Shown here piece by piece: positions 5,283 through 51,908 of a DNA stretch of 64,000 bases (the stretch's first letter is position 1; each line of letters begins with the position of its first letter). A model generated the notes under the pieces. That model was not told where the DNA came from and searched no databases. It was given only the letters and a program-made list of their open reading frames with translations. The stretch lies in the NCBI RefSeq assembly GCF_009931435.1, contig NZ_CP043414.1, one strand, 5' to 3'. This stretch comes from Escherichia coli. GTDB lineage: Bacteria > Pseudomonadota > Gammaproteobacteria > Enterobacterales > Enterobacteriaceae. Position numbers and translations under genes: made by a program.

Positions 5283-6392
5283 ATGACGCAGAATATCTAT
5301 CAACAACTGGGGCTGAAACAAGTGATTAACGCTTGCGGTAAGATGACGATTCTCGGCGTCTCCAGTGTCGCGCCGGAGGTGATGCAGGCCACCGCGCGTG
5401 CGGCATCCTCTTTCGTGGAGATTGATCAGCTGGTGGACAAAACCGGCGAGCTGGTCTCTCGCTTTACCGGGGCGGAGGATAGCTACGTTACCTCCTGCGC
5501 CTCGGCAGGGATCGCCATCGCTATCGCCGCCGCCATTACCCGCGGCGACAAGGCCCGGGTGGCGCTCATGCCGGATAGCTCCGGCATGGCCAATGAAGTG
5601 GTGATGCTGCGCGGCCATAACGTCGATTACGGCGCATCGATCCTCAGCGCGATCCGCTTAGGCGGCGGGCGCGTGGTGGAGGTGGGGTCAAGTAACCTGG
5701 CGGCTCTCTGGCAGCTGGAGAGTGCCATTACCGACGCGACCGCCGCGCTGCTGTATGTGAAGTCGCATCACTGCGTGCAGAAGGGGATGTTGAACATCGA
5801 GGACTTCGCCCAAGTCGCGCAGATGCACAACCTGCCGTTGATTGTCGATGCCGCCGCCGAAGAGGATTTACGTGCCTGGGTGGTGAGCGGAGCGGATATG
5901 GTGGTCTACAGCGGCGCAAAAGCCTTTAACGCGCCTACCTCCGGGTTTATCACTGGTAAAAAAATCTGGATTGCAGCCTGTAAAGCGCAGCATTACGGCA
6001 TTGCCAGGGCGATGAAAATCGGCAAGGAGAACATGGTTGGGCTGGTTTACGCGCTGGAGAATTATCACCAGGGGCAGGCAATCATCACCGCGGAACAGCT
6101 CCAGCCAGTGGTTGAAGCGATTTCTGCGATTCACGGGTTAACGGCTGATATTGAGCAGGATGAAGCCGGGCGTGCAATCTGGCGTATTCGTATTCGGGTA
6201 AATGCGCAAGAATTTGGAGTTGCCGCTCGCGTCGTCGAAGCGCAACTGCGTGGTGGCGATATCGCGATTTATACACGGCGGTATAACCTCCACCAGGGCG
6301 TTTTTAGCCTTGATCCGCGTACGGTGGCGGATGGGGAGATGGCGCTTATCGTGGCGCGACTGAAGGAGATTGCAGATCATGCAAAAGATTAA
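5283..6392 (+). CDS. dgaE: SelA-like PLP-dependent enzyme (D-glucosaminate-6-phosphate ammonia-lyase-like)
   Basis: 369 aa; SGAKAF-type PLP-lysine region; position after EIID matches the Salmonella dga operon order. Confidence 0.7.
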   Translation: MTQNIYQQLGLKQVINACGKMTILGVSSVAPEVMQATARAASSFVEIDQLVDKTGELVSRFTGAEDSYVTSCASAGIAIAIAAAITRGDKARVALMPDSSGMANEVVMLRGHNVDYGASILSAIRLGGGRVVEVGSSNLAALWQLESAITDATAALLYVKSHHCVQKGMLNIEDFAQVAQMHNLPLIVDAAAEEDLRAWVVSGADMVVYSGAKAFNAPTSGFITGKKIWIAACKAQHYGIARAMKIGKENMVGLVYALENYHQGQAIITAEQLQPVVEAISAIHGLTADIEQDEAGRAIWRIRIRVNAQEFGVAARVVEAQLRGGDIAIYTRRYNLHQGVFSLDPRTVADGEMALIVARLKEIADHAKD

Positions 6393-10227: not shown

Positions 10228-10423
<196 letters not shown>

Positions 10424-16352: not shown

Positions 16353-17062
16353 AAATCGAACTGACGGTGAATGGATTGAAGGTACAGGCGCAGTACCCGA
16401 ACGAAGAGATTGAAAATGTGCATAAACCGTTGCTGCGTATGCTGGCAGCCTTACAGACGGTAAATCCGCAGCGGCGTACCGTGGTTTTTCTTTGCGCTCC
16501 GCCGGGGACGGGTAAATCTACCCTAACCACTTTCTGGGAATATCTCGCGCAACAAGACCCGGAACTACCCGCTATTCAGACGCTGCCGATGGATGGTTTT
16601 CACCATTACAATAGCTGGCTGGATGCGCATCAATTGCGCCCCTTTAAAGGCGCACCAGAGACATTCGATGTGGCAAAACTGGCGGAAAATCTGCGCCAGG
16701 TAATGGAAGGGGATTGTACGTGGCCGCAGTACGATCGACAAAAGCATGATCCTGTTGAAGATGCGTTGCACGTTACCGCACCACTCGTCATCGTCGAAGG
16801 AAACTGGTTGTTGCTGGATGACGAGAAGTGGCGCCAGCTTGCGCAATTTTGTGATTTCTCGATCTTTATCAACGCGCCAGCTACTGCGTTGCGGGAACGA
16901 CTGGTGGGGCGCAAGCTGGCGGGAGGGTTATCGCTGGCAGACGCAGAAGCCTTTTATGACCGTACCGATGGGCCGAATGTTCGCCGGGTGCTGGAAGAGA
17001 GTCTGCCTGCAAATTTGACCTTAATGATGACCGCTACGGGTGAATATCGTCTGGTGGATTAA
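16349..17062 (+). CDS. yggC: P-loop nucleoside/sugar kinase-family protein
   Basis: 237 aa; GTG start; Walker A PPGTGKST. Confidence 0.85.
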   Translation: MKIELTVNGLKVQAQYPNEEIENVHKPLLRMLAALQTVNPQRRTVVFLCAPPGTGKSTLTTFWEYLAQQDPELPAIQTLPMDGFHHYNSWLDAHQLRPFKGAPETFDVAKLAENLRQVMEGDCTWPQYDRQKHDPVEDALHVTAPLVIVEGNWLLLDDEKWRQLAQFCDFSIFINAPATALRERLVGRKLAGGLSLADAEAFYDRTDGPNVRRVLEESLPANLTLMMTATGEYRLVD

Positions 17063-17711
17063 CGTTCCTGATTACACCATCTTCCAGTCGCACCACACGA
17101 GAGAAATGACGCCGGGTAAATGCGGCGTCATGACTGATTGCTACGACGCTCGTGCCTCGCTGGCGGCACTTTTCCAGCCAGCTTTCAAACACGCTCATCC
17201 AATTTTCGTCAAAATCCCGACTCGGCTCGTCCAGCAGCAATAGCGGCGGAGAGAGTGCTTCCAGGCAGGCGACGGCGACCATCCGTCGCTGCGCACTATG
17301 CAGATCTAACGGATGCGCGCTGGCAGTGTCTGCTAACTGACAGCATTGCAGGGCAGCATTGGTACGTTGAGTGATTTCATCCGCCAGGCATTTTTGCAGT
17401 TTCAAACCAAATGCGATCTCGTCAGCGACGGTGCTGTGAAAAAGCTGGTTTTCCGCTTCCTGAAACAGTACGCCAATCTTTGCTGCACGTTGGCGGTTTT
17501 TCAGGTTTTTCATCGCCTGTTGTTGCAGCATAACCGTACCGGCTGTGGGCGTAAGAAGACCTGCCATTACTCGTAACAGCGTCGATTTTCCCGCGCCATT
17601 GTCGCCGGTCAGCGCCAACCATTCACCTTGTTTGAGTTGCAGAGAAATGTCGCAAAGACAATCCGTTGCCGCGCCAGGCCAGCGATAAGACATCTGATTT
17701 AACGTTAACAT
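17034..17711 (-). CDS. ABC/ECF transporter ATPase subunit with degenerate signature motif
   Basis: Walker A GDNGAGKST; signature position reads LHSAQ instead of LSGGQ; Walker B LLLLDEPS; ATG 17711 (ORF track starts at GTG 17744); 3' end overlaps yggC by 29 bp. Confidence 0.8.
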   Translation of the reverse strand: MLTLNQMSYRWPGAATDCLCDISLQLKQGEWLALTGDNGAGKSTLLRVMAGLLTPTAGTVMLQQQAMKNLKNRQRAAKIGVLFQEAENQLFHSTVADEIAFGLKLQKCLADEITQRTNAALQCCQLADTASAHPLDLHSAQRRMVAVACLEALSPPLLLLDEPSRDFDENWMSVFESWLEKCRQRGTSVVAISHDAAFTRRHFSRVVRLEDGVIRNVNPPDDIHP

Positions 17712-18382
17712 AGTGGCTGGAGCGCTCCGTTTTGCAATTGCCACGCTTGCTGGCAGTAGTTCAGGAAAGGTGTGCGATGACGTTCAAAAAGAATAATCAG
17801 CGAACCACGTTCAAACGCCCAGTGTTGTAAGCGCTGCAACAGCATTTCGCTGGCCTGCGGCGTCAGGCGACTAAAGGCTTCATCAAGAATTAATAGTTTT
17901 GGCTGCATCGCGATGGCGCAGGCGATGACCACGCGCTGTGTCTCTCCACCGGAGAGTGTTGCCGGGTGACGATGGCGCAACGGCTGGCACTCGGTCAGAG
18001 TCAGGGCAGCATCAATCCGCGCCATAATCTCCTCTTCAGCAAGACACAGATTTTCTGGCCCAAAGGCAACTTCTTCTTCCACGCTAAAGGTACAGCCGGA
18101 GAGCTGCAAATAGGGCGATTGCTGAACGAGCTGGATGGTGGCGGATTGTTCATTAAGCGGGAGATACCCAATGGGCGTACCGAGAAGCGTCCCCGTGCCG
18201 GTTATCTCTCCTGGCAGAAAGTCCGGATACCAGCCCGCCATCAGTTGCGCCAGCGTACTTTTGCCACTGCCGTTGTCACCAAAGATGGCGACTATCCCCG
18301 GTTTGACATAGTGAAAGTCATAACAGAACGGAGGGTGCGTTGAGTGTGTCGGGCAATAGCGAAACTGTTCTAACGTAACCAT
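17705..18382 (-). CDS. ABC/ECF transporter ATPase subunit (near-canonical)
   Basis: Walker A GDNGSGKST, signature LSGGETQR, Walker B LLILDEAF; start either ATG 18382 or GTG 18388, both overlapping the upstream T gene. Confidence 0.8.
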   Translation of the reverse strand: MVTLEQFRYCPTHSTHPPFCYDFHYVKPGIVAIFGDNGSGKSTLAQLMAGWYPDFLPGEITGTGTLLGTPIGYLPLNEQSATIQLVQQSPYLQLSGCTFSVEEEVAFGPENLCLAEEEIMARIDAALTLTECQPLRHRHPATLSGGETQRVVIACAIAMQPKLLILDEAFSRLTPQASEMLLQRLQHWAFERGSLIILFERHRTPFLNYCQQAWQLQNGALQPLC

Positions 18383-19077
18383 ATCCACGCTCCGAATTCT
18401 GCCAGCATCAGCAAGATCATGGCGTAACGTGCCACTTTTTCCAGGTTACTGTCAGGCGGTGCCCATAACGTAGTGCGCCGGTTGTGGATCCGAAATGCCC
18501 GCATATCCAGCGCCGCACCACGGATAGCCAGATCGTTTAGCGCATTGTGTGTTAGCGGAATAATTAGCGCGGGTATAGCACGTAAACGCTGATACCAGCC
18601 CTCATCCAGCGGCACCCCACGGGCGCGCTGCGCTTCATGAATAATCGCTAATTGCCGTTTTAACTGCTCAACGACCAACAAAGGCCCAGCGAACAGATAA
18701 GCGACGCCCGGCGGCAGGCGAGAAGCAAACAAAGCGCGGATAAAACGTTGCACTGGGACGAATTGCATCCACAACTGCGAGGTTGAAACAATCGCCAGAA
18801 TCCGCAACCAGAGCGTAATAGCATGCGTCCACCGTTCTGGCGAGCGTGGCGTGCCGCTTAGCCATTCTGTCAGCCAGCCACCGTGTACCAGCCACAGTCC
18901 AGCCCCCAGCGAGAACATCAGCCAGACAACATATTTTACCCGCCGCCGCGTGGCCTTTAGCGCAATAAGGCAGAAAAAGGTCGCCGCGCTATAGAATGGC
19001 AGTATTGTCTGTGTGGGCAGGATAAGCGTGGTGCAGGCCGCCAGCGCCCACAGCGTTAGGGATGTAAACGGATGCAT
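18370..19077 (-). CDS. ECF transporter transmembrane (T/CbiQ-family) component
   Basis: 235 aa polytopic membrane protein with Ala-Arg-Gly-type coupling motifs (QRARGVP, AIRGAALD); ATG directly follows the upstream TAA. Confidence 0.75.
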   Translation of the reverse strand: MHPFTSLTLWALAACTTLILPTQTILPFYSAATFFCLIALKATRRRVKYVVWLMFSLGAGLWLVHGGWLTEWLSGTPRSPERWTHAITLWLRILAIVSTSQLWMQFVPVQRFIRALFASRLPPGVAYLFAGPLLVVEQLKRQLAIIHEAQRARGVPLDEGWYQRLRAIPALIIPLTHNALNDLAIRGAALDMRAFRIHNRRTTLWAPPDSNLEKVARYAMILLMLAEFGAWIWLR

Positions 19078-19656
19078 TTAGCGCACGGCAGCCATTGCCG
19101 GAAAATGGCGCGTGGTGCGAATCGGCAGCTGACGCAGTAAAAGCCAGACAATCACCGCTGTAAGAATTTTATCGACCAGGTTTGCGCCTATCACCGTAAT
19201 CGCCACCGACTCCACCAGGTTTTGCCCCATAGAGTGCATCCAGGCAACGAACAAATCGGCTCCGCTACCGGTGACACCGCCGAACAGCGCAGTACGCAGC
19301 GGTACAGCGACGACCGTTACTGCAAGCGTAATAATCACGCCGCTGACAACGACTTTTGGCAGGGTGCGAAACCAACCCGCTCGCGCCAGCCAACCGGCGA
19401 CCAGGCCAATAACCATCGCCACGGGGGCAAAGGCGGCGGCGATCGGGTCGGTGAGCAATCCCCAGAGTAAATTGGTCAGTAAGCCGGTCAGCATCCCGAT
19501 CACCGGACCAAGCAGTACCGCGCTAATAAGTGTGCCGATGGAGTCGAGAAATATAGGTAATTTGACCATGCTGGCCAGTTGCCCGCCAATCATATTGATG
19601 GCGATAGAGATAACAATCAACACCAGTGCTTGACTGGAAAAGTGGCGACGCGCCAT
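19078..19656 (-). CDS. ECF transporter substrate-capture (S) component, substrate unknown
   Basis: 192 aa from MARRHFSS (ATG 19656, GAGAGG upstream); about 6 predicted TM segments; AVLLGPVIG motif as in S components; the ORF-track N-terminal extension would overlap the upstream gene. Confidence 0.7.
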   Translation of the reverse strand: MARRHFSSQALVLIVISIAINMIGGQLASMVKLPIFLDSIGTLISAVLLGPVIGMLTGLLTNLLWGLLTDPIAAAFAPVAMVIGLVAGWLARAGWFRTLPKVVVSGVIITLAVTVVAVPLRTALFGGVTGSGADLFVAWMHSMGQNLVESVAITVIGANLVDKILTAVIVWLLLRQLPIRTTRHFPAMAAVR

Positions 19657-19678
19657 AAGAAAACCTCTCTGAAAGTAG

Positions 19679-20110
19679 TTATTTAACGGGGGAAATATGC
19701 AATTCGTCGTAACCAGAAAGCGCGCAAGGTTGGCGGCTAAACGCCAGCTCCTCAAGGCAGCCGATCACCAGTTCAAGCGTGGTCCGCACGGTACAGCCGG
19801 GCATCATATGACCGCCAAGCATCGTGCCGTGTGGATCGGAAACGCAGAGATGAAGATGTTCACCACTCTGTTCCAGTGTGCCGTTCAATGCGATGACTTC
19901 GAACTTACCGCTTAGTAGGGCCGTGTTTTCTTGCCCGGCATAGCGTAAGGCGACGTCAGTCAGACTGCCGGTACAACCTGCAATCCACGCGGCGTGGAGT
20001 TGTTGTTGCTGCGCGAAGGCGCGTAATTGGGAGAGAACTTCCTGCCCTGGGAGCAGGCGCAGCGCGTAAAAGCGTGCGGAGGAAGAATATGGGTAGGGCA
20101 ATGTCATCAT
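19679..20110 (-). CDS. PPC/DUF296-domain protein (predicted DNA-binding)
   Basis: 143 aa; first gene of the operon, GGAG upstream of ATGATG; my recollection is that this resembles bacterial PCC-domain proteins. Confidence 0.6.
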   Translation of the reverse strand: MMTLPYPYSSSARFYALRLLPGQEVLSQLRAFAQQQQLHAAWIAGCTGSLTDVALRYAGQENTALLSGKFEVIALNGTLEQSGEHLHLCVSDPHGTMLGGHMMPGCTVRTTLELVIGCLEELAFSRQPCALSGYDELHISPVK

Positions 20111-20238
20111 TGGAGTACTCCGAAACTCGGACGTATTGCGGATAATATCGACGCTGCATCAGTCATATTCTGATATAAGTCAGGGTTTGTGACGGCACAA
20201 CGAAAAGATTTTGCTACGCTTATTCGTGATTCTGCAAA

Positions 20239-20254
20239 GTGGAATAAATTCCAC
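20239..20254. promoter_or_regulatory. candidate operator: perfect palindrome GTGGAAT-AA-ATTCCAC
   Basis: 7-bp perfect inverted arms in the divergent region; an extra ATTCCAC half-site at 20323-20329; second palindrome TTGTG-N4-CACAA at 20187-20200. Confidence 0.4.
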
Positions 20255-20481
20255 AGGGGCGGGGATGAAAACGTGACGTAAGTCAGATAATTGTCTTCTT
20301 TGACTGGACAATCATTCCTTTTATTCCACGTTTCGCTTATCCTAGCTGAAGCGTTTCAGTCGATTAAATGTTCGACAATTAACCAATCAGTCGCAGTTTG
20401 CGACAGGTAAGGTTTCCCCGGACGATTTGCTGGATTACTCTGTCTGGCAAATTTGCTCAGGGAAAACCTTGCAGGAGATCT

Positions 20482-24034: not shown

Positions 24035-24223
24035 CCCGCTCTGCGGGTCTTTTTTTCGCCAAAAGCAAAATTGCCTGATGCGCTACGCTTATCAGGCCTA
24101 CATGTATCCTGCAATATACTGAATTTACAGGCTTTTGTAGGCTGGATAAGGCGTTCACGCCGCATCCGGCATGACAAAGTGCACATTGATATCTGTCTGA
24201 GCCCCGCTCTGCGGATCTTTTTT
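24035..24223. repeat. BIME (two inverted REPs) between two copies of the fbaA terminator hairpin
   Basis: cccgctctgcgg hairpin plus T-run at 24035-24056 and again at 24203-24223; REP palindromes at about 24073-24103 and 24137-24173. Confidence 0.8.
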
Positions 24224-48114: not shown

Positions 48115-48316
48115 AAAGGCGCTTCGGCGCCTTTGACACTGATGTCAAACTCAACATTGCCTGATGCACCTCGTTTATCAGGCCTACATAGTCTGTGCAA
48201 TGTATTGAATTTGCACGATCTTGTAGGCTGGATAAGGCGTTCACGCCGCATCCGGCATAATAAAAGCACTTTGTCATCAATAATTTGAAAGGCGCTTCGG
48301 CGCCTTTATTTTTTTA
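48115..48316. repeat. BIME (two inverted REPs) between two copies of the gcvP terminator hairpin
   Basis: aaaggcgcttcggcgccttt at 48115-48134 and 48288-48307 (second followed by atttttttt); REPs at about 48159-48187 and 48223-48258. Confidence 0.8.
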
Positions 48317-51750: not shown

Positions 51751-51908
51751 TGTAGGCCTGATAAGACGCGTCAGCGTCGCATCAGGCATCGGATCGCAAC
51801 TGCCGGATGCGGCGTGAACGCCTTATCCGGCCTACGGGCCGCGTCCTTGGTGTGATAAAGGCACCAAATCCCAGGCATGATAAGACGCGTCAGCGTCGCA
51901 TCAGGCAA
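51751..51908. repeat. BIME: three REP elements between convergent yqfA and ygfZ
   Basis: gcctgataagacgcgtcagcgtcgcatcaggc occurs twice (direct) flanking an inverted gccggatgcggcgtgaacgccttatccggcctac. Confidence 0.8.

Follow-up and report, generated by a model that had tools for sequence, protein, structure and literature searches.

A predicted catalytic/degenerate pair of ATP sites in a dedicated ECF importer of Escherichia coli

The ATPase genes of a five-gene operon

We analysed a 64,000-nucleotide stretch of an Escherichia coli chromosome (contig NZ_CP043414.1 of assembly GCF_009931435.1; hereafter the window), concentrating on two adjacent genes for ATP-binding cassette (ABC) ATPases whose products are predicted to form one competent and one degenerate ATP site. 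Both belong to a group of five minus-strand genes between yggC and epd, encoding in order a PPC-domain protein, the S and T components of an energy-coupling factor (ECF) transporter, and the ATPases A1 and A2; the overall gene order is cmtBA-yggP-glpX-fumE-yggC, then these five genes, then epd-pgk-fbaA. The genes abut or overlap, by 13 nt between T and A1 and by 7 nt (ATGTTAA) between A1 and A2, a layout typical of translational coupling within an operon. None of the five reading frames is interrupted in the window, and E. coli 2020CK-00188 matches the region 16900-20400 with 99.9% identity. Coordinates of operon features given below are all on the minus strand.

A2 is the downstream nucleotide-binding domain (NBD), a protein of 225 residues (17034..17711; Pfam ABC_tran, E=3.5e-27). 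An earlier note, made from the sequence of the window, had placed this open reading frame at 17034-17744; the frame exists, but we dropped the GTG at 17744 as its start, as both RefSeq and the orthologues begin at the ATG at 17711 (MLTLNQ...), within the 7-nt overlap with the A1 stop codon. In the translated frame we could read the intact Walker A and Walker B motifs that the note had reported, and indeed the Walker A (GDNGAGKST, 17580-17606), the Q-loop (FQ, 17454-17468), the Walker B (LLLLDE, 17226-17243) and the H-switch (ISHD, 17127-17138; the canonical SHD) are all canonical, with the Asp of the D-loop also kept (RDFD, 17208-17219). The signature motif, or C-loop, is the element that departs from the ABC consensus, reading LHSAQ at residues 137-141 of the 225-residue numbering (CTGCATAGTGCGCAG; 17289..17303). 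Three independent alignments concur in this placement, as the note had claimed: HMMER comparison with ABCB4/ABCB1 sets the A2 segment 'lhsaqrrmvava' opposite 'LSGGQKQRIAIA', that is LHSAQ on LSGGQ; BLASTP against the partner A1 sets LHSAQ opposite LSGGE; and a MAFFT alignment including E. coli LolD likewise sets it opposite LSGGE. Direct reading of the A2 sequence revealed no further SGG-like motif, and no alignment placed a true signature elsewhere in the protein.

The partner A1, the upstream NBD, is also 225 residues long (17705..18382; Pfam ABC_tran, E=2.1e-21), so that both ATPases clearly belong to this Pfam family. Their best NCBIfam models are TIGR04521/TIGR04520/cbiO, with 149 and 120 bits against equivalog cut-offs of 315-330. 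A1 had been described as near-canonical on the strength of its signature, LSGGETQR, and this part of the description stands: the signature is LSGGE (17942..17956), as it is in LolD, and is accompanied by a Walker A (18254-18280) and a Walker B reading LLILDE (17879-17896). The H-switch His and the D-loop Asp, however, are lost. In alignments with A2, LolD and the family, the H-switch region LFERH (residues 198-202, 17777..17791) puts Arg201 in the column of the canonical His, and the D-loop SRLT (residues 171-174, 17861..17872) has Thr174 where the canonical residue is Asp. We considered His202, one residue further on, as a candidate H-switch in E. coli A1. HMMER can force it into alignment, but most genera have Asn or another residue at this position, and we rejected it as a conserved H-switch because of this lack of conservation.

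Conservation and pairing of A1 and A2

A search with the S component, covering one genome for each species, recovered 80 loci with the order PPC-S-T-A1-A2. They come from Enterobacteriaceae, Morganellaceae, Hafnia, Budvicia, Aeromonas, Synergistaceae and Chloroflexi (Anaerolineae/Ardenticatenaceae), and further from the alphaproteobacteria Kaistia and a Hyphomicrobiales metagenome-assembled genome (MAG), as well as from an unclassified Proteobacteria MAG. The A2 signature was readable in 74 species, the other A2 motifs in 75 and the A1 motifs in 77. Not one of the 74 readable A2 signatures is LSGG: LHTAQ is found 21 times, LHAGQ 16 times, and LHSAQ and LHVAQ six times each, the remainder including LNxxE (e.g. 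LNSAE), LNAGQ, LDAGQ, LSLAW, LTHAQ and more. The deviant motif is itself kept across phyla, as L-[HND]-x-[AG]-[QE]-R-R. Around it, the A2 Walker B carries DE and the H-switch reads [SC]HD in 75 of 75 species, and the Walker A and Q-loop are invariant. Of the 120 protein clusters closest to A2, all the full-length Escherichia ones, standing for thousands of sequences, have LHSAQ, whilst Salmonella has LHAAQ and Citrobacter and Klebsiella have LHTAQ; the motif is therefore neither a sequencing artefact nor peculiar to one strain. Ratios of non-synonymous to synonymous substitution (dN/dS), calculated against seven genera and E. whittamii, range from 0.01 to 0.26 across the five genes and from 0.07 to 0.19 for A1 and A2, and purifying selection acts on all five genes. 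The presence of the deviation in all 74 loci, the invariance of the other A2 motifs and the low dN/dS together indicate that the deviant signature is ancient, selected and family-defining.

A1 displays the reverse pattern. Its signature is LSGG[EQ] in all 77 species (LSGGE in 72, LSGGQ in five), its Walker A Lys is present in 77 of 77 and its Walker B Glu in 72. The H-switch column is occupied by the Arg of an E-R pair in more than 60 of the 77 species, within a conserved F/L-E-R motif, and the residue that follows is variable: Asn, the commonest, in 33 species and His (ERH) in just eight. The D-loop reads SRLT in 60 species, and SRLT or a close variant in 72 of 77, a canonical xxLD being kept only by five Chloroflexi and Proteobacteria fusions. 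An aromatic A-loop residue is present in nearly all copies of both proteins (Y/F in 72 of 78 A1, Y/F/W in 76 of 77 A2). In four species, two of Hafnia (L045, L049) and two of Aeromonas (L065, L066), the A1 Walker B ends in D-Q (LLVLDQA / LLILDQA). The exchange of the Walker B Glu for Gln is the one usually engineered to make a hydrolysis-dead site, and it occurs naturally here solely in A1, the NBD feeding the degenerate site.

In a head-to-tail ABC dimer, the P-loop, Walker B and H-switch of one NBD face the signature of the other. With the A1 P-loop, Walker B and H-switch facing the A2 signature, all of the deviations fall in one composite site. This site, which we term site 1 (A1 P-loop and A2 signature), would combine the A2 LHSAQ with the A1 Arg201 for His and Thr174 for Asp, whilst composite site 2 (A2 Walker A, Walker B and H-switch with the A1 LSGGE) is canonical in essentially all species (75-77 of 75-77).

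Natural gene fusions support a 1:1 pair of A1 and A2. The two are a single polypeptide in a Chloroflexi locus (L075), in Kaistia (L076), in a Proteobacteria MAG (L080) and in the metagenomic protein P0243, which sits in a PCC-S-T operon context. In Synergistaceae we found triple fusions of T (with a CbiQ domain), A1 and A2, 650-830 residues in length and directly following S (L069:6581-8680, L070:6568-9051, L074, L078 and L079; P0251 and P0269). An AlphaFold2 model of P0243 (predicted local distance difference test (pLDDT) 88, pTM 0.82) places its LSGGE (152-156) and LHAGQ (422-426) at equivalent loop-to-helix N-termini, and the whole chain superposes on fused two-NBD importer ATPases, OppD/DppD of M. 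tuberculosis, with TMq 0.70-0.75. From ABC structural knowledge and this model of a natural fusion, we infer that A1 and A2 are arranged head to tail.

To place the pair among its relatives, we ran an exhaustive HMMER search with A2. Most of its matches fuse two NBDs in one protein and have ECF ATPases as their best NCBIfam models, and the closest library relatives of A2 are likewise fused two-NBD ECF-type ATPases. We tabulated 134 two-NBD representatives (library entries P0241-P0390): 89 (66%) combine a canonical signature in the first domain (N1) with a deviant one in the second (N2), 31 are canonical in both, ten deviant in both, and only four show the opposite polarity, deviant in N1 and canonical in N2. 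Amongst the 89, the deviant N2 signatures include LSRGQ, LSKGQ, LTRGE, LGKGQ and others. The N2 Walker B and H-switch are canonical in all 89, whereas N1 has lost the H-switch His in 30 and deviates in its Walker B in nine. Within this large clade, in which the polarity of the asymmetry is consistent, the E. coli pair thus represents a split and shortened form, and the census suggests, at the level of sequence, that such asymmetry is common among fused and dedicated ECF ATPases.

The shortening was observed separately. Both ATPases of Enterobacteriaceae stop about 190 residues after Walker A, compared with about 235-245 residues in Proteus, Providencia, Budvicia and Chloroflexi (L042:7259-8107 and L044:8094-8915 were compared). 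A C-terminal extension of about 50 residues, which forms the dimerisation domain in EcfA/EcfA', has been lost from both subunits in Enterobacteriaceae and from A2 only in Hafnia.

The transporter and its chromosomal site

The S component is 192 residues long from the RefSeq start (19078..19656) and matches Pfam PF12822 (ECF_trnsprt) above its cut-off (E=2.4e-8); against the NCBIfam model of the CD3073-family S component it scores 135.5 bits, below the cut-off of 180. Its AlphaFold2 model (pLDDT 83) matches only ECF S components, namely FolT, RibU, ThiT, PanT and BioY, with TM 0.55-0.65. We conclude that it is a genuine ECF S component. The fold was also considered as a guide to the substrate, and rejected: the model fits FolT, RibU, ThiT and PanT equally, so that specificity cannot be read from it. 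The T component (EcfT/CbiQ-like, 235 residues, 18370..19077) is annotated by RefSeq as 'energy-coupling factor transporter transmembrane component T'. It falls just under the 25-bit cut-off of Pfam CbiQ (21.8 bits, E=1.6e-4) and has no NCBIfam match; its sequence displays two Ala-Arg-Gly-like coupling motifs, QRARG and AIRG, and the homologous T-A1-A2 fusion P0251 passes the CbiQ cut-off with 29.8 bits.

The S gene shares one operon with its own A-A-T module, in an order kept in 80 loci, as expected of a group I (dedicated) ECF transporter. The operon contains no gene for a substrate-binding protein (SBP), and none is conserved in its vicinity. The matches of the S protein are to PF12822 and the CD3073-like S family rather than to CbiM, no CbiN-like gene is present in the operon, and only the T and A subunits resemble CbiQ and CbiO, generically. 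With neither CbiM nor CbiN, the 'cobalt' label attached to the orthologues is unsupported.

The first gene of the operon encodes a 143-residue protein with a PPC (DUF296/PCC) domain (19679..20110; Pfam PF03479, E=2.4e-27). Its Salmonella orthologue has solved structures (2HX0/2NMU; E=1.5e-70 to 2HX0), the entries for which are titled 'putative DNA-binding protein'. In all eight distant lineages examined, amongst them Enterobacterales, Synergistaceae, Chloroflexi and Alphaproteobacteria (loci L040-L080, at about 5400-6000), the PPC gene immediately precedes the S gene, and the five operon genes are the only ones common to these lineages, with no other conserved neighbour. The PPC protein may be a functional partner of the transporter. 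Searches with Rfam returned no riboswitch around the operon, at a permissive threshold, nor adjoining it in 11 distant loci, at the gathering threshold; the sole match in the distant loci, to a guanidine-II element, lies about 1.2 kb upstream in L076 and does not adjoin the operon. Since the Salmonella operon is reported to be anaerobically induced, we also sought an FNR box upstream of the PPC gene (20111-20397), and found no match with two or fewer mismatches.

The operon is absent from K-12 MG1655, in which the yggC-epd spacer measures only 284 bp (NC_000913.3 3073692-3073975), and at least 80% of the region is carried by 3,319 of 5,426 complete E. coli genomes (about 61%); it is therefore an accessory but common locus. 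Its presence or absence is polymorphic at a fixed position in the chromosome, and no mobility genes are obvious next to it. The convergent yggC (plus strand, ending at 17062) and A2 (minus strand, ending at 17034) share 29 bp at their 3' ends (17034-17062). In the type strain of Escherichia albertii, NBRC 107761, an in-frame stop lies in A1 between the signature and Walker B (…QRVVIA*AIAM…; L002:7269-7960), making A1 a pseudogene whilst the other operon genes are intact. Elsewhere in the window, gathering-level Rfam matches (38097-38280, 37298-37448, 51755-51832, 10312-10354, 24094-24136 and 48180-48222) correspond to 6S RNA (ssrS), a Sib antitoxin RNA and REP-derived elements (naRNA4/ES036), all of them ordinary in E. 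coli and without connection to the ATPases.

One hydrolytic site or two

The earlier note had predicted one competent and one degenerate site from the A2 signature. The prediction gains from the conservation of the deviant signature, from the A1 changes co-located with it and from the canonical state of the reciprocal site. We consider it more probable than not that the operon encodes a dedicated group I ECF importer with a heterodimeric A1/A2 ATPase, in which site 1 is degenerate and site 2 catalytic, together with a co-transcribed PPC protein. In such a machine, the NBDs of A1 and A2 would be sandwiched head to tail and enclose two composite nucleotide sites. Of these, site 1, built from the Walker A and B, Q-loop and H-switch of A1 with the signature of A2, keeps its A-loop aromatic residue and Lys41. 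As the A1 A-loop and Walker A are intact, we propose that this site most likely binds ATP, hydrolyses it very slowly or never, and would hold the NBDs together as a stable hinge or glue. The catalytic site would be site 2, comprising Lys42, Glu162 and His194 of A2 with the LSGGE of A1, and its closure and hydrolysis would drive the coupling helices of T and the toppling or release of S. The expected stoichiometry would be about one ATP hydrolysed per cycle. Judging from the motifs, this vitamin-type pump probably consumes ATP at only one of the two sites; that site 1 binds ATP and does not hydrolyse it, and how many ATP molecules are used, we infer from sequence.

Several observations weigh against this reading. 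E. coli A1 keeps the Walker B Glu168, with His202 one residue past the H-switch column, so some residual hydrolysis at site 1 is possible. The N1 H-switch His is kept in the Chloroflexi relatives and in 59 of the 89 fused relatives, and where it is kept, the deviant signature alone need not abolish catalysis. Some deviant signatures, as in the TAP and MRP-type sites, lower hydrolysis without eliminating it. Moreover, the ATPases score below the NCBIfam EcfA equivalog cut-offs and T below its Pfam cut-off, making this a divergent ECF module, and the geometry was taken from the modelled structure of a homologous fusion rather than from that of the E. coli heterodimer.

The alternative that best survives builds on the same observations: both sites would hydrolyse ATP, with the A2 signature and the A1 H-switch merely tuning the rate of site 1, giving a two-ATP machine with kinetic asymmetry. 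That A1 retains the Walker B Glu in 72 of 77 species and the Walker A Lys in every one agrees with this, as does the His at position +1 of the H-switch column in E. coli A1, which HMMER can align to the H-switch of P-glycoprotein with a small gap, and so does the canonical H-switch His that the Chloroflexi A1 and 59 of the 89 fused relatives retain despite a deviant N2. However, His202 is not conserved, and three elements of one site (the A2 signature, the A1 H-switch and the A1 D-loop) deviate jointly. The Glu-to-Gln change in A1 of Hafnia and Aeromonas further reveals that loss of the catalytic base is tolerated in this site and never occurs in the other. We therefore regard a two-ATP machine as unlikely, if still deserving of serious attention.

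A second alternative sees the operon as an accessory island undergoing decay in E. coli, the odd motif being a product of relaxed selection or pseudogenisation. That K-12 and about 39% of complete E. coli genomes lack it would fit such decay, as would the premature A1 stop in E. albertii NBRC 107761 and the faster divergence of the ATPases compared with S (about 70% against about 90% identity to other genera). These are outweighed by dN/dS values of 0.07-0.19 for A1 and A2, by catalytic motifs of the consensus site that are intact in 75 of 75 species, by conservation of the deviant motif across phyla and by five intact reading frames in the window; decay is largely refuted and we hold it to be very improbable. 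Misalignment or sequence error, with the true signature elsewhere or LHSAQ a strain-specific mutation, found no supporting evidence and has a negligible chance of being correct, given that three alignment methods concur, that the P0243 model sets LHAGQ at the secondary-structure position equivalent to LSGGE, that the motif is identical in all full-length Escherichia clusters, and that an independent genome has a locus of 99.9% identity.

Returning to an importer with one catalytic and one degenerate site, we compared it with systems already described. The closest is the orthologous operon of Salmonella, STM3071-STM3075, described as a putative five-gene ECF operon, suggested to import cobalt, anaerobically activated and conserved in pathogenic E. 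coli (PMC11481890). It shares the chromosomal context, and S, T, A1 and A2 have 71-94% amino acid identity to those of S. enterica subsp. diarizonae, a comparison that covered these four genes, the PPC gene lying outside that locus. The Salmonella A2 signature is LHAAQ in place of LSGGQ, and the cobalt label rests on CbiO/CbiQ homology only. We found no mention of its degenerate site in the searchable literature. The group II EcfA-EcfA'-EcfT modules (L. brevis 4HUQ/4RFS, L. delbrueckii 5JSZ, T. maritima 4HLU) also combine two different ATPases with T and S; among solved ECF structures, they come closest in sequence to A1 and A2 (E=1e-25 to 1e-30). They have classical motifs in both NBDs (PMC6828968), C-terminal dimerisation domains of about 50 residues that the Enterobacteriaceae A1 and A2 do not have, and one module serving many S components, in contrast to the dedicated S and single degenerate site of E. 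coli. YkoEDC, a group I system in which YkoD consists of two fused NBDs, likewise has its S, T and A genes in one operon; in E. coli, by comparison, the ATPase genes are split and shortened, and the operon includes an obligatory partner gene for a PPC-domain protein. The paper on the YkoE structure discusses no degenerate site in YkoD (PMC5037267).

Pairs of degenerate and consensus sites are known from heterodimeric exporters (reviewed in PMC3971661 and PMC7756269), and reviews assign degenerate sites mainly to exporters. TM287/288, TAP1/2, CFTR, MRP1 and Pdr5 resemble A1/A2 in that a deviant signature meets, at one composite site, a deviant H-switch or deviant catalytic residues from the partner NBD, the other site being consensus. 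They differ in being type IV/V systems with fused transmembrane domains, whereas the E. coli system is a type III (ECF) importer; in A1, moreover, the Walker B Glu is mostly kept and the altered elements are the H-switch and D-loop. Amongst importers, one degenerate site has been noted from sequence in the fused ATPases RbsA and NupO, in a study that explicitly left out ECF systems and classed these SBP-dependent transporters as type II (PMC11466899). Their second NBD loses the Walker A Lys, unlike in A1/A2, and that site therefore cannot bind ATP, whilst the retention of both Walker A lysines and both A-loops in A1 and A2 predicts binding without hydrolysis.

To our knowledge, all characterised ECF modules have two canonical sites. 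In the searchable literature we found no description of a degenerate ATP site in any ECF transporter, which is not proof of novelty, nor any discussion of the widespread, polarised site asymmetry of fused ECF-type ATPases. What we did not find described is thus an ECF importer with one degenerate site; the arrangement itself is well known in ABC exporters.

A bolder extension, which we think doubtful, is that a large dedicated-ECF clade, with A1 and A2 split or fused, runs on a single hydrolytic site, the degenerate site serving as a permanently ATP-occupied hinge or ATP sensor. On this proposal, Enterobacteriaceae could have dispensed with the C-terminal dimerisation domains because of the hinge, and the PPC (DUF296) protein would be an obligatory partner, for example a cytoplasmic acceptor or regulator of the substrate, in the PPC-linked family. 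If true, these transporters would constitute a mechanistically distinct ECF subclass, and the bacterial PPC domain would gain a function.

The asymmetry of A1 and A2 bears on the number of ATP molecules that an ECF transporter consumes in each cycle and on whether its two sites are equivalent. The pair is naturally asymmetric and conserved, it occurs in E. coli and Salmonella, where genetics is easy, and the roles of its sites would have been pre-labelled by evolution. It would therefore offer a direct test of whether one hydrolytic site suffices for toppling of the S component, and the strictly co-inherited PPC protein, the structure of which is solved, may provide a lead to the substrate.

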